From positions 50,570 to 114,569 of the forward strand of contig JAFMAI010000003.1 in NCBI GenBank assembly GCA_029785085.1: a stretch of 64,000 nt of DNA. The letters are read 5' to 3'. How positions within the stretch are numbered: position 1 is the first letter of the stretch; every line of letters begins with the position of its first letter. The stretch comes from Nitrososphaerota archaeon. Lineage in GTDB: Archaea > Thermoproteota > Nitrososphaeria > Nitrososphaerales > Gagatemarchaeaceae. The notes beneath the pieces are model-generated. The model made no database searches and was not told the DNA's origin. It saw only the letters and a list, made by a program, of their open reading frames with translations. The translations under genes were made by a program, and so were the position numbers. This document shows positions 699 to 52,531 of this stretch, one piece after another.

Positions 699-1904
699 AT
701 GGCTGGCGAAGACGTCTCCCTCGCGGAGGCGGCCGAGCGCTTCCGGGGGCTGCTGCAGGAGCAGATCGAGAGAGCCAAGAGGATCAGCAGGCCCGTCGAG
801 TGGCTGGACTACTCGAAGCTAGACAGAGTAGTGATCGGGGTCATCGGAGGAGACGGCATCGGCCCCGTCATAGCGAAGGAGGCGACGAAGGTGATGGAGA
901 CACTCCTCCAAGACGAGCTCAAGGCCGGCAGGGTGGAGATCAGGGAGATAGGCGGGCTCACCATCGAGAACCGGGTCAAGCAACTGAAGTCGCTCCCCGA
1001 GGAGGTCCTTGCGGAGATCCGGAAGTGTCACGTCCTCCTGAAGGGGCCGACGACCACCCCAGAAGCAGGGAGCGGGATGCCGAACATCGAGAGCGCGAAC
1101 ATCGCGATCAGGACGGCGTTCGACCTTTTCGCCAACGTGCGGCCCGTGAAGATGCCGTCCGAGGGGATCGACTGGGTATTCTTCAGAGAGAACACCGAGG
1201 GGGAGTATGTCCTCGGCAGCAAGGGGTTCATGGCCACCCCTGACCTGGCCGTAGACTTCAAGGTAATCACCCGGCCGGGGGCGGAGAGGATAATCCGGCT
1301 CGCCTTCGAGCACGCTAGGAGAACGGGGAGGAAGCGGGTGACGGTCGTGACGAAGGCCAACGTGATCAAGGCCACCGACGGGCTGTTTCTGGACGCGGCG
1401 AAGCGCGTGGCAGGGGGCTTCCCGGAGATCAAGTGGGACAGCTGGTACATCGATGTGTTCACCGCGAAGCTCATAGACGAGAAGAGGAGGCGCGACTTCG
1501 AGGTGGTCGTCCTCCCGAACCTCTACGGGGACATCGTGACCGACGAGGCCGCAGAGCTGCAGGGCGGGGTCGGAACCGCGGGGAGTGCCAACATCGGGGC
1601 GAGGTTCGGCATGTTTGAGGCGATCCATGGGTCGGCGCCGAGGATGGTCACCGAGGGGAGAGAGAGCTACGCGGACCCGCTCAGCCTCATGAGGGCGGCG
1701 GTCATGCTCCTCGAACACATCGGGATGCTGGAGAAGAGCAGAAGGCTCGCGATGGCCCTCGACCTCTGCTCGTTATACGAACAGAAGGTGAAGATCACAG
1801 GGAGGTCCGACGGAGCGACAGCCGCACAGTTCGGGAGCTACGTGACCTCGGCGCTCTCCGATCCGCACCTCGACGGGAAGTGGGCATCCCATCAGAGAGG
1901 GTGA
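699..1904 (+). CDS. isocitrate/isopropylmalate/homoisocitrate dehydrogenase family protein
   Basis: 401 aa. Carries LKGPTTTP and NLYGDIVTDEAAELQGGVGTAGSANIG, the signature of beta-decarboxylating dehydrogenases. Confidence 0.85.
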   Translation: MAGEDVSLAEAAERFRGLLQEQIERAKRISRPVEWLDYSKLDRVVIGVIGGDGIGPVIAKEATKVMETLLQDELKAGRVEIREIGGLTIENRVKQLKSLPEEVLAEIRKCHVLLKGPTTTPEAGSGMPNIESANIAIRTAFDLFANVRPVKMPSEGIDWVFFRENTEGEYVLGSKGFMATPDLAVDFKVITRPGAERIIRLAFEHARRTGRKRVTVVTKANVIKATDGLFLDAAKRVAGGFPEIKWDSWYIDVFTAKLIDEKRRRDFEVVVLPNLYGDIVTDEAAELQGGVGTAGSANIGARFGMFEAIHGSAPRMVTEGRESYADPLSLMRAAVMLLEHIGMLEKSRRLAMALDLCSLYEQKVKITGRSDGATAAQFGSYVTSALSDPHLDGKWASHQRG

Positions 1905-1911
1905 GGCCCCG

Positions 1912-2184
1912 TCAGCCGTGGATGCGGAAGTCGCGGTGGTTTCTCGGAGAGGCCGCCTTTACGTCGACCCGGTCAACCCTGGCCCGGGGCGGGCCTAGCT
2001 TGGCCCAGTCTATGACCCTCTGAACCATCATATCATCCCCCTCCAAGAAAGCTTCCACGGAACCGTCCGGGAGGTTGCGGACCCAGCCGTGGACGCCTGC
2101 ATCCGCCGCCAGCCTGACCATGCTCGCCCGGAAGGAGACGCCGTGGACGAGTCCCACTATCCTGACGCGGACCGCTCTGGTCAT
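1912..2184 (-). CDS. acyP: acylphosphatase
   Basis: Internal ATG at 2184 of ORF 1912..2361 gives about 90 aa: VRVRIVGLVHGVSFRASM...GWVRNLPDGSVEAFLEG, typical acylphosphatase. The upstream part of the ORF is Arg-rich and overlaps the neighbouring gene region. Confidence 0.8.
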   Translation of the reverse strand: MTRAVRVRIVGLVHGVSFRASMVRLAADAGVHGWVRNLPDGSVEAFLEGDDMMVQRVIDWAKLGPPRARVDRVDVKAASPRNHRDFRIHG

Positions 2185-2192
2185 GGCCGCCA

Positions 2193-2810
2193 CTATAGCA
2201 CGGGGAACAGTCCCTTCAGCCCTTCGGCTACGAATGCGACTGCCAGGGCCGCGATCAGCAGGGCGGTTATTCTGGAGAGGGCGACGGTCCCGTTCTGTCC
2301 CATGAACCTGCTCACCCAGTCGGAGCTGGAGAGGACGAAGTAGGCCACGGCTGCGTTGCACCCCACCACGAGCAGGGCCAGGAGCGGGCTGTAGGGAGGG
2401 GCAGATATGATGATCACCGTGGAGATCGCACCAGGTCCGGCCAGGAGGGGGGTGGCGAGCGGGAAGGCGGCGATGTCAGATGGGGCCAGCCCTCTCTGCC
2501 GGTCCTGCTCCCCCCTGAGGTGGTCGACGGCGACGATGAACAGTATGATCCCCCCTGCGACCCGGAAGTCGTTGATGTTGATGCCGAAGATTTCGAAGAT
2601 CAGCCATCCGAAGAGCGCGAAGAGTACGAGTATGACAGTCGAGATGACGACCGCCTGCTTCACTATCTTCTTTCTGGATCCCCCGGACCCCTCGGTGAGC
2701 CCGATGAATATGGGGACCGTCCCCACGGCGTCGATTACAGCGAACAGAAGCACGAAGGCCTCCACGAAGAGCCCGACGTCGAAGGCGAAGAAGGAAGCGA
2801 AAGCCGGCAT
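2193..2810 (-). CDS. MarC family (UPF0056) integral membrane protein
   Basis: 205 aa, six hydrophobic segments, MarC-like layout with TPLLAGPGAISTVII. Confidence 0.7.
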   Translation of the reverse strand: MPAFASFFAFDVGLFVEAFVLLFAVIDAVGTVPIFIGLTEGSGGSRKKIVKQAVVISTVILVLFALFGWLIFEIFGININDFRVAGGIILFIVAVDHLRGEQDRQRGLAPSDIAAFPLATPLLAGPGAISTVIIISAPPYSPLLALLVVGCNAAVAYFVLSSSDWVSRFMGQNGTVALSRITALLIAALAVAFVAEGLKGLFPVL

Positions 2811-10167: not shown

Positions 10168-11112
10168 CTAGACCCGGCCGCCCCTGAGCATCTCATACAG
10201 CATGCGGCGGAAGGCCTGCTGCGAGGCCTGGTAGACCACCCTCACGTTGGGCTTCTTTTTCAGGGCCCCCAGCTCGTCGACCCAGGTCACCCCCCTCGAG
10301 ATTCCGTCGCCGGCGTCGACTTCGACGAAGCGGTCCCGGGTTTCGGTCGCTACCTCCGGGTTCAGCACGATGGCCATGGTGATGCTGTCAGGGCAGCTGG
10401 TCCCGTCTATCCCCCGCTCGATCTCCATGAACTTTCTCACCTGCCTGTTCACAGCCAGATAGAACTCCGACTCCTTGGTCTTCATCCTCTCGATCTCTTC
10501 CAGTTCGGGGACCCCGATGAGCCCGTGCCGCATCACTATCTCCCATCCCACCATGGTGATCGGCATCCCCGAGTTCAGGACTATGCTTGCGGCGTCCGGG
10601 TCGACCCAGATGTTGAACTCGGCGGCCGGGGTGACGTTGCCGAGGTACTGGTTGGCGCCCCCCATGAAGTAGAACTCCTTCACCTTCTTGGCTATCCCCG
10701 GGTCTTTCCTCAGGGCGAGGGCGACGTTGGTCATGGGCGCTATCTCGACGAGCGTGATCTCTCCGGGGCTCTCGTTGATGGCGTCGATGATGGCGTCCAC
10801 CGCGTGCTTTCGCTCGGGCCGCTGCCTGGCCCGGGGAAACATCGAGTTCCCCATGCCGTCGGTCCCGTGGATGTCCTCCACGGTCCTCCACTCCTTGAGC
10901 AGAGGGTGCCTTGCACCAGGATAGACAGGGACCTTCCCGGACTCCCCCGCGACCTCGATGGTGTAGAGGGCGTTCTCGACCTCCTGGTCGAAGTCGATGT
11001 TCCCGCAGTTGATGGTGATGCCCTCGAGCCTCGCGCCCTTCGCCCTCATCGCCATCATGATGGCGATCGTGTCGTCGCCCGCCGTGTCCGTGTCGAGGAT
11101 GATCCGCTGCAA
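10168..11112 (-). CDS. inosine/uridine-preferring nucleoside hydrolase
   Basis: RIILDTDTAGDDTIAIMMA (DxDxxxDD signature). I prefer the TTG at 11112 because the longer ORF (to 11208) overlaps the divergent rio2 start and a TATA-like box lies about 30 nt upstream of 11112. Confidence 0.85.
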   Translation of the reverse strand: MQRIILDTDTAGDDTIAIMMAMRAKGARLEGITINCGNIDFDQEVENALYTIEVAGESGKVPVYPGARHPLLKEWRTVEDIHGTDGMGNSMFPRARQRPERKHAVDAIIDAINESPGEITLVEIAPMTNVALALRKDPGIAKKVKEFYFMGGANQYLGNVTPAAEFNIWVDPDAASIVLNSGMPITMVGWEIVMRHGLIGVPELEEIERMKTKESEFYLAVNRQVRKFMEIERGIDGTSCPDSITMAIVLNPEVATETRDRFVEVDAGDGISRGVTWVDELGALKKKPNVRVVYQASQQAFRRMLYEMLRGGRV

Positions 11113-11201
11113 GGCGTATGGGTACGGAGGGGCGGCTGATAAGAACGATGGCCGGCCCGCGGTGGCAACATCAATAGGGAGGGCGTCCGAGCGGCGGACG
11201 G

Positions 11202-12089
11202 ATGTCAACTACGGAGAAGGCGGCAAGGGTCCTGAAGTCGCTGAAGGACGAGGAGTGGAGGACCCTGGCAGGGGTAGAACGCGCGTCCACTGGATATGGG
11301 ACCCCCGACGCCGGAAGGCTGTCGCGCATGAGCCGCCTCCCTCCTGAGAGGGTGAGTTTTGCCACGGGCGACCTGGAGAGGAAGGGGCTCCTGACGAGAA
11401 AGGGCCAGGGCTTCGCCCTGACGAGGGAGGGGGTGGAGGTGATGGCCCTGAAGGACTATGTGAAGAAGGACCTCATCTTCGCGCTGGGGGCAATCATCGC
11501 GAAGGGGAAGGAGTCAGACGTCTACGAGGCACTCAGTGAAGAAGGGTCGGCCTACGCCCTCAAGCTCTACAAGATAGGGAGGACGTCGTTCACTAGCGTC
11601 AGGAAGAAGCGGGCCAGGGAAGACGCGGCGTTCAGGAGCTGGATGACAGCCAACTATGAAGCGGCAAGGCGGGAGTATCACGCCCTGAGGAAGCTTGAGG
11701 GGCTCTCCCCCTCGTTCCCCCGGGCCGTGGCATACAGCAGGAGCACTGTCCTGCTGGAGGAGGTCTCCGGGGTGAGGCTGTCCCAGCGTCCGGGCCTCGA
11801 GGACCAGAGTGGTGCCCTGGGCGTCATCCTCGGCCTCATGCGGACGGCGTACATGGTGGCCGGGCTGGTGAACGCCGACCTCAGCGAGTACAACATACTC
11901 ACCGACGGCGCGTCATTCTGGCTGATCGACTGGCCTCAGGCGGTAGACGCCTCGCACCCCAACGGCAACGAGTTGCTGATGCACGACGTCAAGAGCGTCA
12001 CCAGCTTCTTCAGGAGAGCCTATGGGATCACGGTGGACCCTCAGAAGGGCTTCGACTACGTCACAGGCAGGTCGCAGGCACTGGAGTAA
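11202..12089 (+). CDS. rio2: RIO-type serine kinase, Rio2-like (N-terminal winged helix)
   Basis: 295 aa. N-terminal wHTH, then a RIO kinase core (GKESDVYEA..., NADLSEYNIL, LIDWPQAV). Confidence 0.85.
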   Translation: MSTTEKAARVLKSLKDEEWRTLAGVERASTGYGTPDAGRLSRMSRLPPERVSFATGDLERKGLLTRKGQGFALTREGVEVMALKDYVKKDLIFALGAIIAKGKESDVYEALSEEGSAYALKLYKIGRTSFTSVRKKRAREDAAFRSWMTANYEAARREYHALRKLEGLSPSFPRAVAYSRSTVLLEEVSGVRLSQRPGLEDQSGALGVILGLMRTAYMVAGLVNADLSEYNILTDGASFWLIDWPQAVDASHPNGNELLMHDVKSVTSFFRRAYGITVDPQKGFDYVTGRSQALE

Positions 12090-41742: not shown

Positions 41743-44235
41743 TCATCGCTTTCTGGGCGTCTCTTCCGAAGGGTCGTCGACCCCCCGGTCGTTGAGGACG
41801 AAGACCGTGTCCCTCTCAGGATGGTATGGGCTGTCCACCATCCTGGCTATGCGGTTCTTGGCAGCCTTCCTGAGGTACAGCCTGTAGGTGCTCGTGTGAG
41901 CGACCACGTGCCCGCCAGTGGGCCTGGTGGGGTCCCCGAAGAAGGAGTCCGGGGCGGCCTGCACCTGGTTCGTGACCACCACGGCTATGTTGTAGATTTC
42001 TGCTGTCCTCAGGAGCTGGTGCATGAAGCGGTTGAGCCTCTGCTGCCTTTCGGCGAGGGTCCCCCTCCCGAGGAACTCGGCCCTGTAATGCGCAACGGCG
42101 CTGTCCAGGATGACCAGCTTCACCTTGTTGGGCTCGATGATGCGTCCGAGGTCTTTCACGATGAGCTCCTGGTGCGCGCTGTTGTAGGCCCTGGCCACGG
42201 TGATACGAGAGAGTACCTTCTCGGCGTCCATCCCCCTGGCCTCGGCTATCTCCTGTATCCTCTCCGGCCTGAAGGTGCCTTCGGTGTCGATGTAGATCGA
42301 CCCTGCGTCCAGTCCTCCCTCCCCCCTTGGCTGCTGCGCCATGACGCAGAGGGTGTGACAGATCTGGCTGTTGTGGAGTATGGTCGGGATGTTGCCACTG
42401 ACGAACGCGTGGCCTTCCGGTACCTCGAAGTCGTACACGTAGTCGTTGTACTTCTCTTCACGTATCTCCGTTATCGTGTCCCAGTTGAACTCCATCGCTT
42501 TCTCGAGCGCATCCACGGCGCCTTCAAGCATCTGGATGCGCCTCTCGGCCTCTTTGGCCGCGGCCGTTTTGAAGGCCGCAATCCTCTCTTCCGGGAGCCC
42601 GCGCTTGAAGTAGTTATTGAAACCCGCCTTTGAAACGCCGAGGGGTTTAGCCAGGACGTTTGCTGAGAACGACAGCGAAAGCGCATACCTCCGGAAACCG
42701 TCCGGGGATTCGAGCTCGGCCCGCTGTAGATCCCTCAGGTTCCGGGCAAGCGAATCGGAGACGCTTTTCAGGAAGTTGACTGCCGCCTCCACCTGGGCGT
42801 CGGTCATCCCAGTCTTGCCGTACGCTGACCTGGCCAGCGCCTCGTAGAGGACACCGTTCTTCCTCAGAACGCCCTCGCGTCTGATGTGTCTCGAAGAAAC
42901 AGCAGACCTGTACGTCGCCCTAAGCAGGTCCCCTGCAGGGGTGCCGTACTTGCTGTTCCTCGCCTTCACCCTCCGGACTCTCTTGCTCTTGAAAGGGACC
43001 TGTGACATCTTGTCCCTATCTGAGCCGGCGACATGCAACCTGTAGTGGGGCCCCGTGCCTGCGTCTTCGACGCTGAAGGTCGATGATATGCCGAGCCTAG
43101 AAAGAAGATACGATACCCCTTCAATCAGCACTTTACTGTCCGAGGAAACTTCGACGTCTGGGCCTTGGACGCGCCCATCCCCCTCGAAGTAGCCCGCGAG
43201 GAAGTAACGTACGATGTCGTCGCTGCCATTGAGAACGCAGTCGGGAACGCACTTCGAATAGGAGTCGCACTCGATCAGCTTCCCGAGCAGCCTCTTCACC
43301 GGAGACCTGAGCAGAATCAAGGCGGAACGGTCTTCCCTGCGGGAGATGGTCGGCTCGAAACCAAATCTGTTCTTGAGATACTCCTTCGTCCATACGACCA
43401 GTTTCTCGTCGGTGTTCGTAATTGACAGGGGGTTCCTCGTCCCTTCTGCCACAAAGAACCCAAGGAAGAAGGCGTCGTCGTCCGTGATGTCAGACCTCCC
43501 CGATATGACCAACGTCTTTGGGGTCGCGATCTTGTCGCCGACCGAAAGGGAGGCCGAAGGGACCCATTGGATACCACTGCCTGAGAAGACCATCGCCATA
43601 TGGAGCCTGGCGAGCCTCAGGTCTCTCCCGCGCTCTGTCTTGACTACCAGAATTGATGAAACGCGCTCCCGGTAGAGGTACGATGCCGGAGTGGGTCGCG
43701 AGTTCAGGCCGACGACGTTGACCCCTTTGAGCGGGACGACGTAACCTGAGTCGAGGGGCTTCTCGCCATACAGGCCCTTGTACTTCTCATAGGTCGCTGC
43801 GATCGGCTCGAAGTGCATGTTGGCATCGTTGCTGTAGAGAACCTTCGTGTCTCCGCCGACGCACTTTCCGCTCCCGAACTCGCCGAAAAATTCGGTCATC
43901 GCCCAGGTCTCGATGCCCCCACCCAGGAGGTCGTCGAGGTTCTTGGAACCTGTGGAGACCCTGTCGATGGCCTTCCGCTTGACTAGGAGGTCCGCGGCGT
44001 TGATGAAGTCAGGCTCGAGCCGGTGCAGCTCCACCAGCTTCTTTCTGGCCTTGTTGTTCAGCTCTACCGCCTTGGAGACGTCGATGTCTACGGCGTCGGC
44101 GATGTCCATGGGCCCCGAGGTGGCCAGGTCGAGTATCGTCTCGATCCCGGCGTCCTTCAGCTTGGCCTTGGTGGCAGGCCCTACACCCGGGAGGGTGTCG
44201 AGCTCCAGGTCGTCTCCGACTTCGGCTTCAGGCAA
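41743..44235 (-). CDS. radA: DNA repair and recombination protein RadA, intein-containing precursor
   Basis: 830 aa. N-terminal HhH (LPGVGPATKAKLKDAGI). Walker A GEFGSGK is interrupted and resumes at SQICHTLCV. Walker B is KLVILDS. The exteins total 332 aa. Confidence 0.95.
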   Translation of the reverse strand: MPEAEVGDDLELDTLPGVGPATKAKLKDAGIETILDLATSGPMDIADAVDIDVSKAVELNNKARKKLVELHRLEPDFINAADLLVKRKAIDRVSTGSKNLDDLLGGGIETWAMTEFFGEFGSGKCVGGDTKVLYSNDANMHFEPIAATYEKYKGLYGEKPLDSGYVVPLKGVNVVGLNSRPTPASYLYRERVSSILVVKTERGRDLRLARLHMAMVFSGSGIQWVPSASLSVGDKIATPKTLVISGRSDITDDDAFFLGFFVAEGTRNPLSITNTDEKLVVWTKEYLKNRFGFEPTISRREDRSALILLRSPVKRLLGKLIECDSYSKCVPDCVLNGSDDIVRYFLAGYFEGDGRVQGPDVEVSSDSKVLIEGVSYLLSRLGISSTFSVEDAGTGPHYRLHVAGSDRDKMSQVPFKSKRVRRVKARNSKYGTPAGDLLRATYRSAVSSRHIRREGVLRKNGVLYEALARSAYGKTGMTDAQVEAAVNFLKSVSDSLARNLRDLQRAELESPDGFRRYALSLSFSANVLAKPLGVSKAGFNNYFKRGLPEERIAAFKTAAAKEAERRIQMLEGAVDALEKAMEFNWDTITEIREEKYNDYVYDFEVPEGHAFVSGNIPTILHNSQICHTLCVMAQQPRGEGGLDAGSIYIDTEGTFRPERIQEIAEARGMDAEKVLSRITVARAYNSAHQELIVKDLGRIIEPNKVKLVILDSAVAHYRAEFLGRGTLAERQQRLNRFMHQLLRTAEIYNIAVVVTNQVQAAPDSFFGDPTRPTGGHVVAHTSTYRLYLRKAAKNRIARMVDSPYHPERDTVFVLNDRGVDDPSEETPRKR
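42370..43863 (-). mobile_element. RadA P-loop intein with LAGLIDADG homing-endonuclease domain
   Basis: 498 codons. Begins CVGGDTKV immediately after GSGK and ends PTILHN followed by Ser+1. LAGLIDADG blocks FFLGFFVAEGT and YFLAGYFEGDGRV. Confidence 0.85.
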
Positions 44236-46624: not shown

Positions 46625-47762
46625 CGGCCGACTCGAGTTCGGCCACCATAGAATCCTTGGCATCGTACTCGGCAGCCAGACCGCCGAGGACGGACGCCCT
46701 GATGCGATACCTCTCGTCTGAGAGCCTGGCGAGGGACTGTTCGAGGACGTCGAAGGTCAACTCTTCCTGTTTCACGACGAGCGAGACGCCCAACCTCGCT
46801 GCCTTGTCTGCGTTCCCCTCCTGCTCGGGCTGCTTCGGGATCGGCACGAGGATCGACGGCTTCGCCGCGAGCATCGTCTGGCCCACGGTCCCATGCCCCG
46901 CCCTGGACACGACGAGGTCGCAGTTGCGGAAGTAGAAGCCGGCGATCTCGCACCATCCGTAGAACCAGCCGCCTGGGATGTGGATCGCAGTCGTGTTCCC
47001 TGCGGGGTCGCCTCCGGTCACCACGAAGACATACCTGTCGCTCAGCCCTTCTGAGAGTTCCAGGGCCTTACGCAGGAATGGGAGCCTGGTCCTGGGGGGG
47101 CCGGATACCTGCCAGAAGACCTTGGTCCTGGTGTCCCTGACGAACTCTTGTGCGGGCCCGTCGGGGGCCGTCCCCCCGGCAGGGGAGATGAAGCCTACGT
47201 AGCGTGCCTTGGCCACGCCACTCCCCCACAGGTTCTTCTCGCTGACGGTGTAGGGCGGAGGCAGGTCTGGGAGGAAGATGCCATCGCTCAGCTTCCACAG
47301 CCTTCCCATGCCGGTTGAGATGCCGACGGAGAGCAGCCTGGACAGGGGGTTTGTCTTGGAGTGCGAGCTGGTCAGGTTGAGCTGGTTCAGGACTGTGAAC
47401 GTCGGAAGACGGAGGATCTTCCCGGCGAGCACCGTTGGCAGCGCAGAGTCTCCCAGGACGGCGTCAGGCGCGAATCTCCTGATGTTGGCGAGTTCGCCTG
47501 CAAGCTGCCTGTACGACCTCGCCAAGATGGCTGGCGTGTCCAGGAGGGTCTCCTTCACCAGGAACTCGCCGTCCTCTGAATAGCGCACGTCCGCTAGCGG
47601 GAGGCTGTTGCACCTGTACCCTCTGCCCCTGACGAGCTCCGCCGCCTCCCCCGAGGACGAGAACTCTACCTTCGCGCCTCGTGCAGAGAGCGCGCCCGCC
47701 ATCTCCAGCATCCTGCTGGCGTGGCCGAGACCAGAGCCGAAGCAGCCAATATACACCTTCAT
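46596..47762 (-). CDS. glycosyltransferase (GT28/GT1, MurG-like fold)
   Basis: The ATG at 47762 gives MKVYIGCFGSGLGHASRMLEMAGAL. C-terminal GHGTVGQTMLAAKPSILVPIP..EQEGNA. ATGA overlap with the upstream gene. Confidence 0.75.
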   Translation of the reverse strand: MKVYIGCFGSGLGHASRMLEMAGALSARGAKVEFSSSGEAAELVRGRGYRCNSLPLADVRYSEDGEFLVKETLLDTPAILARSYRQLAGELANIRRFAPDAVLGDSALPTVLAGKILRLPTFTVLNQLNLTSSHSKTNPLSRLLSVGISTGMGRLWKLSDGIFLPDLPPPYTVSEKNLWGSGVAKARYVGFISPAGGTAPDGPAQEFVRDTRTKVFWQVSGPPRTRLPFLRKALELSEGLSDRYVFVVTGGDPAGNTTAIHIPGGWFYGWCEIAGFYFRNCDLVVSRAGHGTVGQTMLAAKPSILVPIPKQPEQEGNADKAARLGVSLVVKQEELTFDVLEQSLARLSDERYRIRASVLGGLAAEYDAKDSMVAELESAATRGRRGPR

Positions 47763-48379
47763 CTCCGGGTCGCTTGTTCCACCCTTTCGGCGGTCCCGCC
47801 CGGCGAGGTCTCCGCGAAAATCTCTGCCTGGAAGACCTGCACCCTGGTCCCTTCTCTGAGCCAAGCATCCATTGGCAGCCCGGCTTTCGCGCAAGCCTCG
47901 GAGAGGAATGCTTCCCGGTCCCATCCCTGCTCGGTGGCGACCTGGGGCAAGAGGAGCCCACTGGCGTAGCGGTTGGAGACGATCAGGCCGTCCACGCCCA
48001 GCTTGATCTTCGAAGGGAGGTCCTTGCGGGCGGGGGCTGAGATGTCTCTGGGAGCGGTCAGCACGCTCACCTCTATCACTATGTGGTCGAGCTCCTCGGC
48101 GGCTATGGGGGACGGGAAACGTGGGTCTTCCGAGGCAAAGACAGCCACGTCCCTTATGGCCCGGCCCAGGGGCTTGACGGCCTCAGGGTAGCCTATGCAG
48201 CCTCTGAGGGCCTTCGTCCCCTCCAGTTCGGTGTTGACGGTGACGAAGACGCCATGTTTCTCGGAGAAGACTCCCGAGTCCGGGGGCCGTGAAGGAGGGG
48301 GCACCCTCCTGACGTGTGCCTCAAGGGTCTCCCTCGCCAGCGCTACCGCCGTCTTCCCCTCGGCGATTGTTAGTGGCAA
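47759..48379 (-). CDS. AMMECR1-domain protein
   Basis: 206 aa with GVFVTV...LRGCIGYPE, the AMMECR1 signature. Confidence 0.85.
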   Translation of the reverse strand: MPLTIAEGKTAVALARETLEAHVRRVPPPSRPPDSGVFSEKHGVFVTVNTELEGTKALRGCIGYPEAVKPLGRAIRDVAVFASEDPRFPSPIAAEELDHIVIEVSVLTAPRDISAPARKDLPSKIKLGVDGLIVSNRYASGLLLPQVATEQGWDREAFLSEACAKAGLPMDAWLREGTRVQVFQAEIFAETSPGGTAERVEQATRR

Positions 48380-48869
48380 GCTGCTTCTGACCGAGGCGGC
48401 CCGCGAGCGACCTTAACTTTTTCCAGTGGCTCCCCTTCCAGTAGACATGGCCACATCTGACACACCTGAAGAACGCTCTGTGGCTTCGCTGCACGCTGGC
48501 AGGGACCTCCGCCGACACCCCTGCCTTCCCCACCCTTTCGAGGGCGCTCCCGCACAGCGAACAGAGCGGATCGCCCGTGACCAATGCCAGGCCCAACGGT
48601 CCCGCGGCGTCCGCTATCTCAGAAAGTCTCTTGCCGTCGCTCCCCCCTCTCAGCAGGATCGCGGGGACCCCCCTCGCCCTGGCGAAGCCCGCCAGTTCGC
48701 GGTCGGCGGTCAGAACGACCCTCCCTTCCGTGGCCGCGAATCTGACCAGCTGGGCGTCCTCCCCGCTGCCATAGTAGGAGGTGTCGAAGCCCAGCGCCCT
48801 GAGCTTTCTCGCCAGCGACCCGAGCATGGCGTCCGCGGCGAAGGTCGGTCTCGCCCTACCAGTCGCCAT
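48321..48869 (-). CDS. Mut7-C/DUF82 PIN-like RNase-domain protein with C-terminal zinc ribbon
   Basis: FAADAMLGSLARKLRALGFDT..., then CSLCGSAL...CVRCGHVYWKGSHW. Confidence 0.75.
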   Translation of the reverse strand: MATGRARPTFAADAMLGSLARKLRALGFDTSYYGSGEDAQLVRFAATEGRVVLTADRELAGFARARGVPAILLRGGSDGKRLSEIADAAGPLGLALVTGDPLCSLCGSALERVGKAGVSAEVPASVQRSHRAFFRCVRCGHVYWKGSHWKKLRSLAGRLGQKQLATNNRRGEDGGSAGEGDP

Positions 48870-48881
48870 GGGGCGCAGGAC

Positions 48882-49316
48882 CTACCTTGTGGTCTCCGCG
48901 GTCTTCACGGACTCGTAGAGCCTGCGCGCCGCAGGGTCTTTCTCGAAGTGTTCCCTGATTGGCGCGATTATGGCGTCGAGGGCGCCGGCCACCCCCTTTT
49001 TGAGGTCAGCCGGGTGCAGCTTGCCAGCCAGGTACGCCTCTTCAAGCTCCGCATAGGCGGTAAACTCTACCGTTCCGCCGTACTTCTCCGGCCTTTCTAT
49101 CCTGAGGGTCTTTAGCTTCCTGAAGATGATGTACTTCGAGTAGTCCATCAGCGCATTGCCTGCCGCGACCTTGGGCGGGCAGTAGGCCGAGTTCACCTTG
49201 CGGGAAATCACTTCGACCCCGTCGTGGACGAAGATGGAACTCTCAGGCTTGCTCTTACTCATCTTGCTCGCTATCTCCGAGTCCAGGGCACGCATGTCAG
49301 GGCAAAACACTTTCAC
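48882..49316 (-). pseudogene. tyrS: C-terminal fragment of the resident tyrosyl-tRNA synthetase gene (KMSKS loop to C-terminus)
   Basis: Encodes KVFCPDMRALDSEIASKMSKSKPESSIFVHD...IERPEKYGGTVEF...LHPADLKK, high-GC like the flanks. Upstream of 49316 the frame loses all TyrRS similarity and hits a stop at 49374-49376. Confidence 0.8.
49307..49315. repeat. left copy of a 9-bp inverted repeat (ACACTTTCA) at the insert junction
   Basis: Reverse complement of 51799..51807. Coincides with the left homology and composition breakpoint. Confidence 0.4.
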
Positions 49317-49353
49317 ACACGTCTCGAGGCAGATGGCACGGGAACGCCTGATG

Positions 49354-49370
49354 CTTTTATCGATTATGAA
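49354..49370 (+). promoter_or_regulatory. TATA-like element upstream of the endonuclease gene
   Basis: cttttatcgattatgaa lies 16-32 nt upstream of the GTG at 49386. Confidence 0.3.
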
Positions 49371-49385
49371 TGACTACAATTCGAC

Positions 49386-50495
49386 GTGTTGGACGAGGTC
49401 ATCCTACGCGGCACGGCAGAGCCCTGGGAGAACGATTACTCGGACATCAAGCGATGCTGGCTCTGCGACCTCCCCAGCGAAGCAGAGATTTGCTCATACT
49501 GCACAATAAAACCAAAGCCAAAGCGCCAACCCTCTGAGCTGAGGTGGCCGCCATCAGAGGGTGACCTGGAAAAGCTCTACAATGATTCGGGGATGAGCCT
49601 TCATGATATCGCCAGATTCGTGGGCAGGGGATACGCTACTGTCCATTATTGGTTTCGCAAGTACGACTTGGTGAGAAGAAACCGTGAGGAAGCGTCGAGG
49701 TCGATCGTGAGAAAGTATCCGGTAAGAGGGTTTTCTGGCCGCATTTCAGAGAAGGCATACATGTTTGGGATTGCATTTGGCGATTTGCACGTCAAAAAAT
49801 CGCACAAATCGATTGAGGTCTACACATCTACGAGCGTACCTTCGATGGTTGATCTGTTGATAGACACGTTCGCCAAATACGCTCGGGCCAAGATTACACC
49901 CACTATCTATTATTTGAAGGGGAAGAAAATTGGCGGATGGCGTGTAAGGGCGTTCTTGGATCGGTCTTTCGCCTTCCTCCTAGAGAAGTACTCCGCTACC
50001 GTGCCTGATTGGGTCACATCATCAGATGATACATTTTGGTCATTTCTCGCTGGGCTTTTCGACTCGGAAGGCCATTCCGGAATATACAACAGCGAGAGAC
50101 ACCACGGAGGTTCTACAACACAACTGACTATAGTCAACACGAATCTGAAACTTATTCGATGGCTTCGTTCACGAATGGAGGCGCGTGGTTTCCATCCGAT
50201 AATCTCATCAGAACGATCTAACACAAGTGTATGGTACAGGCTGGAATTCGGACGGAGAGAAGAGCTTCAAACGCTACTCAGGATTCTACCGTCCCGTCAT
50301 CCAAAGAAGAAGGTCGTCGCCCGACTGTTGCTCAAGATACCTACAAGGATGGATGCGGAAACAAGTTCGAGAATTATCCAGGAATACAAGTTGCTAAAGC
50401 AGGCGATGAAGGAGGATGACAGAAGACAGGGGTTGTCTTCCATCTTTGTCCTTGAACAAACGTTTCACTCGAAGGACCAGAAGGACCAAGGCTAG
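49386..50495 (+). CDS. free-standing LAGLIDADG-family homing endonuclease-like protein with N-terminal CxxC..CxxC and HTH
   Basis: 369 aa with two LAGLIDADG-type motifs (AYMFGIAFGDLHV and FLAGLFDSEGHSG). N-terminus has CWLC...CSYC, then an HTH-like MSLHDIARFVGRGYATVHYWFRKY. It is not embedded in any host ORF. Confidence 0.75.
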   Translation: MLDEVILRGTAEPWENDYSDIKRCWLCDLPSEAEICSYCTIKPKPKRQPSELRWPPSEGDLEKLYNDSGMSLHDIARFVGRGYATVHYWFRKYDLVRRNREEASRSIVRKYPVRGFSGRISEKAYMFGIAFGDLHVKKSHKSIEVYTSTSVPSMVDLLIDTFAKYARAKITPTIYYLKGKKIGGWRVRAFLDRSFAFLLEKYSATVPDWVTSSDDTFWSFLAGLFDSEGHSGIYNSERHHGGSTTQLTIVNTNLKLIRWLRSRMEARGFHPIISSERSNTSVWYRLEFGRREELQTLLRILPSRHPKKKVVARLLLKIPTRMDAETSSRIIQEYKLLKQAMKEDDRRQGLSSIFVLEQTFHSKDQKDQG

Positions 50496-50545
50496 CCTCG
50501 GTGGAGACGGGGAGACGGGGTCGTGCGAATCCAATCCCGCAAATG

Positions 50546-50556
50546 CTCTTTAAGAG
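50546..50556 (+). promoter_or_regulatory. TATA-like element upstream of the cassette tyrS
   Basis: ctctttaagag lies about 20 nt upstream of the ATG at 50574. Confidence 0.3.
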
Positions 50557-50573
50557 CGCTCGAGAGCCGTAGT

Positions 50574-51665
50574 ATGTTGGCTTCGAGATTGGAATCCCTC
50601 AAGGCGACTCCAACTGAGGAGTTGCTCCAAGCGGATGAGTTTGCGGAACTTGTGGAACGGGAAACCCGTCCGAAGATGTACGTCGGGTTTGAAATCAGCG
50701 GGCAAGTGCACCTTGGCACGGGGATATTGAGCATGGCGAAAGTGAGAGACTTTCAAAGGGCCGGGTTCGAATGCACAATTTTCCTAGCCGATTGGCACAG
50801 TTGGTTGAATGGAAAGTTGAATGGAGACTTGGAGACCATTAGAGAGGTCGCAGGTGGCTATTTCAAAGCGGCGCTCGGAATCGGACTGAAGAGTGCCGGG
50901 GGCGATTCGGAATCTGTTAAGTTCGTAATGGGGAGCCAAATCTATGACCAGGAATATTGGGCACGCTTAGTCAATGTCTGCAAGAACCTGACGCTCAAGA
51001 GGGTCCAAAGGATGATCACCATTATGGGTCGCAAGGAGGGTGAAGAAACCAACTTCGCCCAGTTAGTCTATCCACCGATGCAAATAGCGGATATTTTCCA
51101 ACTCGGTGTGCACGTCGCCCAAGGAGGCATGGATCAGCGCAAAGCCCATGTAGGCGCAAGGGAGGTGGCTGACAAACTGGGGTTGCAGAAGCCGTTGGCT
51201 TTGCATCATCATCTACTCCTGGGCCTTACAGCGAGCGGTAGATCAATGCTGCCTTCTGGCGGGGATTTAACCGAACTCAAGACTGAGTTGAAAATGAGCA
51301 AGAGCAAGCCCCGTTCGGCCATATTCATCCATGATTCCCCTGAGGAAATAGAACGGAAGATTATGGCAGGGTACTGCCCTGAGAAGGAAACTGAGCTCAA
51401 CCCGGTGATTGACATACTTGAGTACGTTGTGCTCCCTGTAAAGCACAGGATTAAGATTGAACGTTCTCAGAAATATGGGGGAGACTTTGAGGTAAGGGAC
51501 GCGGCAGAACTCAAATCAGCCTATGCCCAAGGCAACTTACACCCGCTTGACCTGAAAATATCCACAATCAGGCTCTTGGTAGATTTGTTGCGACCAGCAC
51601 GAGAATTCTTTGAGGGCCACAGAGAATTGCTCTCGGTATTCCCCCGGGTCCAGACCAAAGAGTAA
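50574..51665 (+). CDS. tyrS: tyrosyl-tRNA synthetase (intact, cassette-borne, divergent from the resident fragments)
   Basis: Complete archaeal-type TyrRS: YVGFEISGQVHLGT, FLADWHSWLN, YPPMQIADI, KMSKSKP, IERSQKYGG, LHPLDLK. The ORF track starts at GTG 50523; the ATG at 50574 is preferred because of the TATA position. Confidence 0.9.
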   Translation: MLASRLESLKATPTEELLQADEFAELVERETRPKMYVGFEISGQVHLGTGILSMAKVRDFQRAGFECTIFLADWHSWLNGKLNGDLETIREVAGGYFKAALGIGLKSAGGDSESVKFVMGSQIYDQEYWARLVNVCKNLTLKRVQRMITIMGRKEGEETNFAQLVYPPMQIADIFQLGVHVAQGGMDQRKAHVGAREVADKLGLQKPLALHHHLLLGLTASGRSMLPSGGDLTELKTELKMSKSKPRSAIFIHDSPEEIERKIMAGYCPEKETELNPVIDILEYVVLPVKHRIKIERSQKYGGDFEVRDAAELKSAYAQGNLHPLDLKISTIRLLVDLLRPAREFFEGHRELLSVFPRVQTKE

Positions 51666-51798
51666 TCCTGATTACTCGAAGAACGATTCGACTCTGAAGT
51701 GGACATCGCAGTTTTAGACGGCGATTCCTTCATCAAGCTAAAGACATGTTCGCCTTAGGCTACTGCAGATTTGAATTGGAAATGGGACTTCGCCGAAT

Positions 51799-51807
51799 TG
51801 AAAGTGT
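51799..51807. repeat. right copy of the 9-bp inverted repeat (TGAAAGTGT) at the insert junction
   Basis: Reverse complement of 49307..49315. Spans the codons for His48-Phe49 where TyrRS similarity ends. Confidence 0.4.
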
Positions 51808-51947
51808 GCAAGCCCGCTAGGCTCGAAACCGTCGTAGGCCGTCGGGTGCTCATTCGTCTCGAGCAGAGCCCTCAGCTCGGCCTCCGTGATCACCTCCTCC
51901 CCCACCCCCTTGACAAGCTCCAGCCTCGATTCCAGGTCCATCTGCAC
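51804..51947 (-). pseudogene. tyrS: N-terminal fragment of the resident tyrosyl-tRNA synthetase gene (to the first His of the HIGH region)
   Basis: Encodes MQMDLESRLELVKGVGEEVITEAELRALLETNEHPTAYDGFEPSGLAH, then unrelated residues and a stop (ORF 51738..51947). A TATA-like ctgttttaacc lies 25-35 nt upstream of the ATG. Confidence 0.8.
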
Positions 51948-52057
51948 CCGGTCTCCGCGGCTCCGGTTAAAACAGTTGACAGCGAGGGGTGTAGGATGCG
52001 ACCCAGCAGCTAGAAAGTCTTAACTACGTTCAGGAGCGGCTGGCTTTCCGAATTCTA

Positions 52058-52531
52058 TTGCCCAACGCGAGGCACTGGGTGTACGGAGCCGCGATAGCTA
52101 CCTATGTCCTCAGCGTCTGGGGTGCCTACGTCACCGTAGGCGACTTCGGTGCCGGGTGCGGGACGGGGTTGGGAGCCAGCTGGCCTCTCTGCAACGGCGC
52201 CCTCTTCCCGAGCTTCGCCCACTACGCCACCCTGATAGAGTATATCCACAGGATGCTGAGCGTGGTCGCGGGGCTGGTGATTCTCTACGCCACCGTCAAG
52301 GTCTGGAGGGTGAAGCCGAGGCCGTCCCTCCCGTCCAAGCTCATGCTCCTAGCCATTGTGCTGATACCCATCCAGGTCGGAATCGGCGGAGGGGTCATAG
52401 CGTCAGGGCTGGCCCCGACCGTCGCGACGACGCACTTCGCCTTCGCCCTCGTGATCTTGGCGATCATAGTCTTCGCGGGGGCCCTGATGTTCGCGGAAGC
52501 GAGGCAAAGGGGCCTGCCAGCGAAGAGTTAG
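52058..52531 (+). CDS. ctaA: short (4-TM) heme A synthase, CtaA/COX15 family
   Basis: 157 aa with GAGCGTGLGASWPLCNG and IEYIHRML (His ligand), resembling the half-size archaeal CtaA type. Confidence 0.65.
   Translation: MPNARHWVYGAAIATYVLSVWGAYVTVGDFGAGCGTGLGASWPLCNGALFPSFAHYATLIEYIHRMLSVVAGLVILYATVKVWRVKPRPSLPSKLMLLAIVLIPIQVGIGGGVIASGLAPTVATTHFAFALVILAIIVFAGALMFAEARQRGLPAKS

Follow-up and report, generated by a model that had tools for sequence, protein, structure and literature searches.

How does an archaeon live on when an essential aminoacyl-tRNA synthetase (aaRS) gene has lost its catalytic core to an insertion? The question is raised by the tyrosyl-tRNA synthetase (TyrRS) locus in a 64-kb stretch of a Nitrososphaerota genome (64,000 nucleotides of contig JAFMAI010000003.1, positions 50,570 to 114,569; here called the window). 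At this locus, two remnants of the resident TyrRS gene, named tyrS-A in the following, flank a cassette of 2.49 kb that is inverted relative to tyrS-A and carries two genes, one encoding a LAGLIDADG homing endonuclease and one encoding a TyrRS of another type, named tyrS-B. We consider it likely that this is a selfish home-and-rescue cassette of two genes, in which a homing endonuclease and a complete, xenologous tyrS-B sit together inside the essential tyrS-A. For comparison, related loci were collected and labelled L001 to L027. The features of the locus are listed below, with positions referring to the window.

48882..49289, minus strand: C-terminal tyrS-A remnant, codons 228-362 plus stop codon, with KMSKS and anticodon-binding domain, frame open
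49290..49385, plus strand: left cassette end, upstream region of the endonuclease gene, guanine plus cytosine (GC) content 0.48
49386..50495, plus strand: free-standing LAGLIDADG homing endonuclease gene, 369 amino acids, assigned by motifs, PDB profile and predicted fold
50496..50576, plus strand: spacer with the promoter-like box of tyrS-B, TCTTTAA at 50547-50553
50577..51665, plus strand: tyrS-B, complete xenologous archaeal-type TyrRS, 362 amino acids, assigned by PRK08560 and Pfam
51666..51780, no strand: right cassette end, non-coding spacer, GC 0.44, homologous to the spacer of L026 and L027
51781..51947, minus strand: N-terminal tyrS-A remnant, codons 1 to ~55, assigned by PRK08560 (positions 1-46), tblastn and alignment with L027

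tyrS-A is the ordinary TyrRS of Nitrososphaerota, represented by hundreds of intact sequences of 362 amino acids that are 78-86% identical to it. The original prediction, made from the letters of this stretch, had taken the flanking fragments for the two ends of a TyrRS gene, and both a profile and an intact relative confirmed this. The NCBIfam equivalog profile of archaeal TyrRS, PRK08560 (342 positions), matched the 48-amino-acid piece 51947..51804 with positions 1-46 and the C-terminal open reading frame (ORF) of 144 amino acids (49316..48882) with positions 217-337; tblastn with the intact TyrRS of L019 (362 amino acids) as query placed residues 1 to ~50/62 at 51941..51753 and residues 228-362 at 49289..48885, the latter with 86% identity. 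The remnants on the minus strand hence comprise residues 1 to ~55 (51941..~51781) and 228-362 (49289..48885), with the left junction at 49289/49290 and the right junction near 51780-51793. The gap between them, predicted at ~140 residues, turned out to be larger: ~172-177 codons are missing, which is the entire catalytic core downstream of the HIGH region. Of the C-terminal ORF read from 49316, the TyrRS part stands but the first nine residues (KVFCPDMR..) are cassette sequence and not TyrRS. Translation of the N-terminal remnant probably started with the ATG at 51941; its frame is shifted after ~codon 49 by a deletion of 4 nucleotides, and the aligned L027 sequence still reads ..AHLPFGVLRPM. 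A split but functional tyrS-A was ruled out, since the gene lacks its catalytic core and is broken at different positions in different lineages. Comparison of the C-terminal fragment with L019 gave a ratio of nonsynonymous to synonymous divergence (dN/dS) of 0.085 at a dS of 0.98, from which it follows that most of the divergence predates the loss of function. Since the divergence mostly stems from the functional period, the insertion would be young relative to the split of the window and L019 species, and the C-terminal fragment is, judged by its substitutions, a recent pseudogene.

The lower-GC DNA of ~2.5 kb that had been predicted in place of the tyrS core was found as the cassette of 2.49 kb, with a GC content of 0.47-0.54 within (49-51% overall) compared to 0.62-0.69 in the flanks; it is the sole stretch below 0.56 in the entire window. 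Such a sharp compositional contrast in DNA of metagenomic origin could also come from an assembly or binning artefact, that is, a foreign low-GC fragment joined into a broken tyrS, but the chance of this is negligible. The identical endonuclease protein is encoded on ten contigs, of which nine were retrieved, each assembled from a different sequencing run. These nine match positions 47093-52463 of the window at 99.9%, and several span both junctions, so that the chimeric assembly that had been named as a pitfall of the prediction is ruled out by independently assembled contigs. Further, the same architecture is present in at least five other lineages.

The first cassette gene (49386..50495) had been recognised as LAGLIDADG endonuclease-like, an identity that motifs and predicted fold bear out. 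The protein consists of an N-terminal CxxC..CxxC element, a helix-turn-helix (HTH) and two LAGLIDADG motifs (FGIAFGDLH and LAGLFDSEGH), and the acidic residues D133 (FGIAFGD133LH) and E228 (LAGLFDSE228GH) were invariant in an alignment of 10 homologues. Pfam LAGLIDADG_3 matched the window protein with 18.3 bits, which is below the cut-off of 22.5, HTH matches were found as well, and several homologues carry a precomputed PF14528 match. A sequence profile of the family searched against the PDB matched the PI-PfuI intein endonuclease (1dq3) with E=1.4e-5. The AlphaFold (AF2) model had a predicted local distance difference test (pLDDT) score of 77, with the core above 85, and the best 50 Foldseek matches listed for it in the PDB were all of the LAGLIDADG family (probability 1.00, E 4e-9 to 3e-7), including PI-PfuI, I-OnuI, I-Tsp061I, I-DmoI, I-SceI and the bI3 maturase. 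The model has the alpha-beta-beta-alpha-beta-beta-alpha double-domain fold of LAGLIDADG enzymes of the monomeric, two-motif type. dN/dS of the endonuclease gene was 0.14-0.17 where synonymous divergence is unsaturated. With an intact ORF, invariant catalytic D and E residues, the fold of LAGLIDADG enzymes and purifying selection on its gene, the endonuclease looks active.

Both cassette genes had been predicted to lie behind TATA-like boxes of their own, and this holds. TTTTATCG (49355-49362) is located ~25-30 nucleotides before the start codon of the endonuclease gene, and a TTTTAT box upstream of this gene is common to the window, L001 and L023. TCTTTAA (50547-50553) lies 24-30 nucleotides upstream of the tyrS-B start, is invariant in 7/7 aligned cassettes and is probably the archaeal TATA element of tyrS-B. 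A second motif, CACTTTC (49308-49314), was invariant in all 8 endonuclease-bearing loci (window, L001, L011, L012, L014, L015, L023 and L025); it sits ~45 nucleotides upstream of the TATA-like box, in surroundings that are only ~30% conserved. The motif may have a regulatory role, perhaps through the HTH domain of the endonuclease itself, or may alternatively be a co-opted relic of tyrS-A codons ~218-220. In a MAFFT alignment, the 40 nucleotides to the left of CACTTTC align collinearly with tyrS-A codons ~215-232, which is no more than suggestive of a tyrS-A relic. A low-stringency blastn search for tyrS relics in the cassette ends gave noise only. tblastn of the cassette ends revealed one credible relic, in L025 (residues 339-361, E=1e-4); the matches in the spacers of L011, L012 and L014 were not significant (E above 0.1).

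The endonuclease gene is free-standing, a separate ORF with its own TATA-like box. No Intein_splicing/Hint domain was matched in the protein by Pfam, and neither introns or other RNAs of Rfam nor a tRNA were matched in the window; an intron or intein is thereby ruled out. Besides, with ~172 tyrS-A codons gone, splicing could not restore the gene. The endonuclease has few close homologues (8 clusters), and every homologue with context examined sits at the tyrS locus, including loci without tyrS-B. When 1.84 billion representative proteins were searched with the endonuclease profile, 75 clusters were found at E<=1e-30 and 687 at E<=1e-10; the tyrS-linked group comprises only 3 representatives (493, 314 and 203 bits), the next scorer reaching 181 bits. 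Scans of genomes and metagenomes with this profile yielded no more than three additional loci, and just two of these were new. Around the tyrS-linked group there is a large family of HTH-LAGLIDADG proteins, most of which is unexplored. L015 contains a second free-standing LAGLIDADG gene (11008-11991, minus strand, 327 amino acids, GC 0.52 versus 0.59-0.63 nearby), with UbiA on one side and, on the other, two ORFs for membrane proteins upstream of rpl13e; its product is only 22% identical to the tyrS-linked endonuclease, and no duplicated host gene is evident.

The second cassette gene was predicted to be an intact tyrS with all signature motifs and a xenologue of the resident gene rather than a duplicate, and on both points the analysis agrees. 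tyrS-B (50577..51665) matched PRK08560 with 410 bits (cut-off 220) over positions 6-335 of 342 and Pfam tRNA-synt_1b with E=5e-38, and it contains the HIGH-type motif ..SGQVHLGTG.. and KMSKSKP. Identity to tyrS-A is 38-44% over the resident C-terminal fragment and 40% over the full length, and tyrS-B belongs to a separate clade of ~14 clusters. dN/dS was 0.07-0.08. tyrS-B is retained in loci without the endonuclease (L026 and L027) and in a locus without any trace of tyrS-A (L014). Because of its full TyrRS signatures, the low dN/dS and its retention after loss of the endonuclease or of tyrS-A, tyrS-B is, as far as sequences tell, functional. The closest relative outside of cassettes is found in L016 (7001-8086, 57% identity), in an unrelated neighbourhood of SHMT, a Ras-like GTPase and pyruvate:ferredoxin oxidoreductase without an endonuclease; the next relatives (~50%) are from Geothermarchaeales, DPANN archaea and Thermococci.

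How did the cassette come to lie in tyrS-A? Among the relatives, the locus was found in the following states.

L018-L022, including the 1.16-Mb contig CP070275.1: empty site, intact tyrS-A between ctaA and Mut7-C/AMMECR1, no endonuclease
Window: cassette with tyrS-A remnants
L001 (assembly GCA_029785525.1): cassette with tyrS-A remnants, residues 1-119 and 233-362
L015 (same sequence as L013): cassette with tyrS-A remnants, residues 1-49 and 187-362
L023: cassette with a tyrS-A remnant, N-terminal fragment 1-186, left side lost to the contig end
L025: cassette with a tyrS-A remnant, C-terminal relic of 23 residues
L014: cassette without recognisable tyrS-A remnant
L026: endonuclease lost and tyrS-B kept, endonuclease 3' relic of 46 amino acids with in-frame stop
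L027: endonuclease lost and tyrS-B kept, no endonuclease upstream of tyrS-B
L011 (2869-3657) and L012 (3578-4399): endonuclease only, between Mut7-C and the 3' end of an apparently intact tyrS-A, contigs ending inside tyrS-A

The uninterrupted tyrS that had been expected between ctaA and Mut7-C in relatives is thus present in L018-L022, and the endonuclease-tyrS pair recurs at the same site in other lineages, with presence and absence at strain level and with transfer. The sampled loci each carry one intact tyrS type only. All stages are present: the empty site, a fresh insertion, decaying fragments, no fragments, and loss of the endonuclease with tyrS-B kept. In L026, the C-terminal tyrS-A fragment and most of the endonuclease gene are replaced by a gene for a radical-SAM protein of 547 amino acids (1140-2783, minus strand) with a host-like GC content of 0.61.

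The fresh insertion is seen in L001. Its flanks are identical to those of L019 by 99.96% over 7.4 kb and by 99.87% over 6.8 kb, and the sole difference is a cassette of 2430 bp in L001 that replaces 337 bp of L019 (tyrS-A codons 120-232); the tyrS-A remnants of L001 are 99-100% identical to the intact gene. With flanks as similar as these, the cassette is a presence/absence polymorphism at the level of strains. Cassettes and hosts also differ in their relationships. The L026 host is distant from the window host (amino acid identities of 40% for ctaA, 61% for AMMECR1 and 57% for Mut7-C), yet tyrS-B is 94% identical, whereas the L027 host is close to the window host (ctaA 89%, Trx 92%), with 90% identity in tyrS-B. 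Among the hosts, that of L015 is nearest to that of L023 (ctaA 77%, ThiI 75%), but the L015 cassette is nearest to that of L014: tyrS-B is 85% identical to L014 against 69% to L023, the endonuclease 74% against 51%. Vertical inheritance of one ancient insertion as the sole explanation is ruled out by the L001/L019 polymorphism and by this conflict between hosts and cassettes. Nucleotide identity between the window and L026 is 0.89-0.93 through the endonuclease relic, the spacer and tyrS-B, and beyond tyrS-B it drops to 0.83 in the right spacer, 0.69 in the N-terminal tyrS-A fragment and 0.49 in ctaA; the comparison of the window with L027 has the opposite trend. All cassettes have a GC content of 0.49-0.53 irrespective of the host, the hosts themselves having 0.60-0.69. 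An alignment revealed that the window, L026 and L027 have a common N-side junction at ~codon 55. Horizontal transfer of the cassette, with a breakpoint at the cassette edge, is demonstrated by these data. Copying of the cassette by recombination inside the tyrS-A remnants, used as homology arms, would produce such identity steps and a common junction.

Transfer of tyrS-B could also be an ordinary xenologous displacement under positive selection, for example for resistance to a natural TyrRS inhibitor, brought about by recombination in the flanks, with the endonuclease as a passenger or irrelevant. There is precedent: divergent types of TyrRS, ThrRS, SerRS and LeuRS are known as homeoalleles that were exchanged within a syntenic context, for which recombination in the flanks or transient coexistence was invoked and endonucleases were mentioned 0 times (PMC3191353). 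The strong purifying selection on tyrS-B after loss of the endonuclease in L026 and L027 is in line with such a displacement as well. However, identity does not break in the flanking genes but at the edges of the cassette and inside the tyrS-A remnants; purifying selection also acts on the endonuclease, whose close group occurs only at the tyrS locus in the sampled loci; and a gene that is merely beneficial need not land inside the gene it replaces. Displacement without a role for the endonuclease is therefore considered unlikely.

Where would the endonuclease cut? Three observations converge on codon 186/187 of tyrS-A (GLDQRR|ANIL) and point to this position as the putative break point. The N-terminal fragment of L023 ends exactly after codon 186 (..GLDQRR), the C-terminal fragment of L015 starts at codon 187-189 (..(AN)ILAREIA), and in tyrS-A of the endonuclease-only locus L012 the third-position GC content (GC3) falls from 0.85 to 0.58 with a maximum-likelihood change point after codon 185, a likelihood reached by 0/2000 permutations. 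This change point lies ~530 bp from the endonuclease gene. In L011, the 3' part of tyrS-A also has a low GC3, with a weaker, non-significant change point near codon 246 (p ~0.1). The putative site encodes the conserved GxDQ motif of the catalytic core, and endonucleases of inteins and introns prefer targets of this kind. Around codon 186/187, tyrS-B differs from tyrS-A at 9/22 bases, which is compatible with a presumed immunity of tyrS-B but no proof of it, the site having been placed from the junctions. A weaker GC3 change was seen in an empty-site allele: in tyrS-A of L022 (962-2050), GC3 goes from 0.89 to 0.74 after codon 188 (permutation p ~0.01), and the 3' part is unusually similar to that of L012 although no endonuclease is nearby. 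This may be the footprint of a past homing event that was followed by loss of the endonuclease.

The coincidence of the change point in an endonuclease-only locus with the insertion junctions is a further argument against displacement by selection, and it also bears on the possibility that a genuine homing endonuclease has another target, either tyrS-B alleles or the region of the tyrS 3' end and the intergenic space to Mut7-C. The disruption of tyrS-A would then be a single past accident, passed on by vertical descent and by general recombination. The endonuclease gene of L011 and L012 indeed lies between Mut7-C and the 3' end of tyrS-A and not in the core, and the constant inverted orientation of the cassette fits a single founding event. 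We nevertheless regard another target as quite improbable: the junctions of L015 and L023 abut at codon 186/187, the conversion tract of L012 likewise begins at this codon, ~530 bp away from the endonuclease gene, which is what a cut at this position should produce, and the very recent event in L001 replaced the core of tyrS-A only. Both this explanation and displacement under selection are weakened by the positions of the breakpoints and by the conversion tract of the endonuclease-only locus.

For the home-and-rescue cassette, which remains the likely explanation, the following course can be proposed. The endonuclease would cut an intact tyrS-A at the GLDQRR|ANIL codons (186/187) of the conserved catalytic-core motif, and the break would be repaired from a cassette-bearing copy, with the tyrS-A remnants that flank the cassette serving as homology arms. 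Repair would copy the endonuclease gene together with tyrS-B and delete the tyrS-A core. tyrS-B, with 9/22 bases different at the putative site, would presumably stay uncut and supply the TyrRS activity, so that the cell would survive on tyrS-B and henceforth depend on the cassette. Later, the tyrS-A remnants would decay and the endonuclease gene could be lost, leaving tyrS-B as the sole tyrS; the end product would be a homeoallele switch, i.e. a permanent change of the TyrRS type. The observed states match the classical cycle of homing endonucleases, with invasion, fixation, degeneration and loss, which here ends in a TyrRS switch. The original prediction had likened the cassette to a cleave-and-rescue element. 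This reading is supported, with cleavage and the immunity of tyrS-B as its predicted parts, but the element seems to be copied through homology arms, which makes it homing with rescue, as in HomeR, and not a rescue from a distant site as in ClvR.

Several points weigh against this reading. We infer cleavage of tyrS-A, and its recognition site was derived only from the junctions. These differ between lineages (49, 55, 119 and 186 on the N side; 187, 228, 233 and 339 on the C side), which requires the assumption of extra deletions or one-sided illegitimate repair; the differences can be explained by homologous repair on one side and end joining on the other, as in L015 and L023, or by later deletion. 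The endonuclease genes of L011 and L012 are located 3' of an apparently intact tyrS-A, and the putative target in L012 looks ordinary, from which it follows that either the specificity differs or the site is not exactly at codon 186/187. The cassette is always inverted relative to tyrS-A, which argues for one founding illegitimate insertion with subsequent spread via the arms and not for repeated de novo captures. A vector that would carry the cassette between cells was not found in the collections searched: the endonuclease and tyrS-B had no match in IMG/VR, and the endonuclease had none in GenBank phages or in the plasmids of PLSDB. Finally, tblastn found no other tyrS within the 64-kb window, and the lack of a second tyrS holds for this window only.

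Is such an element known? Full-text literature searches revealed no paper that links a homing endonuclease to the replacement of an archaeal aaRS gene, in agreement with the earlier statement that no natural endonuclease-plus-aaRS replacement cassette is known to have been described. The closest described systems are mobile endonuclease ORFs of fungal mitochondria, and intronless homing in phages is also close. The fungal ORFs carry a foreign C-terminal segment of the invaded gene, as in atp6 of Allomyces macrogynus and atp6, atp9, cox2 and nad3 of Glomus, and the native gene end remains downstream as an unexpressed relic (PMC3630166). As in the cassette, the endonuclease travels with a replacement coding sequence for the gene it invades, and the insert is divergent while the native relic is near-identical to the sister taxon, just as in L001 and L019. 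In the fungal cases, however, only the 3' part of the gene is replaced and is fused in frame to the resident 5' part, whereas the cargo in the window is a whole gene that runs on the other strand from a start and a promoter box of its own, with ~40% protein identity, and the loss of the resident gene is complete; besides, the invaded gene encodes an aaRS and lies on an archaeal chromosome instead of in a mitochondrion. The endonuclease-only locus L012 is closer than the window to the fungal type. The low-GC3 3' part of tyrS-A in L011 and L012 resembles the replacement 3' ends carried by the fungal elements.

The free-standing endonucleases of T4-like phages (seg, mob) likewise lie outside of introns and inteins, at or in a conserved essential gene, and they spread by double-strand-break repair with co-conversion of the flanks, comparable to the tract of L012 that begins at codon 185. 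These are GIY-YIG or HNH enzymes in phages, in contrast to a LAGLIDADG enzyme on a cellular archaeal chromosome. Unlike them, the cassette does not convert the resident gene to a resistant allele but brings a complete substitute that is non-homologous at the DNA level and destroys the resident copy. With the endonucleases of inteins and introns the cassette enzyme has in common the LAGLIDADG fold and, putatively, a target in conserved catalytic-motif codons of an essential gene; the difference is that function is kept by a spare gene and not by splicing, there being neither a splicing domain nor an intron RNA. Only ~5 kb from the cassette, the RadA/Rad51 gene of the window (830 amino acids, 41743-44235, minus strand) contains an intein whose endonuclease domain matches LAGLIDADG_3 of Pfam with 66 bits, and the same intein is present in L001, L014 and L018-L021. 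One genome region therefore holds both a splicing and a spare-gene solution for the invasion of an essential gene.

Among engineered systems, the synthetic drives HomeR and ClvR consist of a nuclease that targets an essential gene and a linked rescue that is insensitive to cleavage, non-rescued products being lost (PMC7968924). As in HomeR, the cassette sits in its target gene and would be copied by homology-directed repair. It differs from both in being natural, with a protein-guided LAGLIDADG enzyme in a haploid prokaryote; spread would have to use lateral DNA transfer and not sexual heterozygotes, and the rescue is a xenologue and not a recoded copy. Compared with the aaRS homeoalleles introduced above, the locus has in common that two divergent tyrS types alternate at ctaA / tyrS / Mut7-C among related lineages, but here the switch would be actively driven by a linked homing endonuclease, and parts of the old allele stay behind.

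In sum, new are the cargo, a complete xenologous essential gene in inverted orientation with its own promoter box, and the setting in a cellular archaeal genome. With somewhat more confidence than doubt, we propose that the cassette is a natural prokaryotic gene drive of an undescribed design, in which an endonuclease carries a complete, cleavage-insensitive xenologue of the essential gene it invades and in this way actively makes archaeal lineages switch their aaRS homeoalleles. One cargo may be exchanged for another, with a whole tyrS-B in some relatives and the 3' part of tyrS-A in others, and the wider HTH-LAGLIDADG family (the 75 clusters at E<=1e-30) may contain further cassettes of an endonuclease and an essential gene. 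The cassette may also supply, as a tool, a LAGLIDADG enzyme whose defined target lies in a universally conserved motif. If the proposal is correct, homing endonucleases would have a third strategy besides introns and inteins, a spare gene that lets the endonuclease colonise an essential gene without death of the host. That aaRS homeoalleles replace one another horizontally at conserved positions of the chromosome has long been noted and has so far been explained by passive flank recombination or by selection; the cassette would add an active, selfish mechanism. Home-and-rescue and cleave-and-rescue drives would have a counterpart in nature, all life stages of which are present in public metagenomes, and the persistence of a drive, resistance to it and its decay would become open to study in nature.

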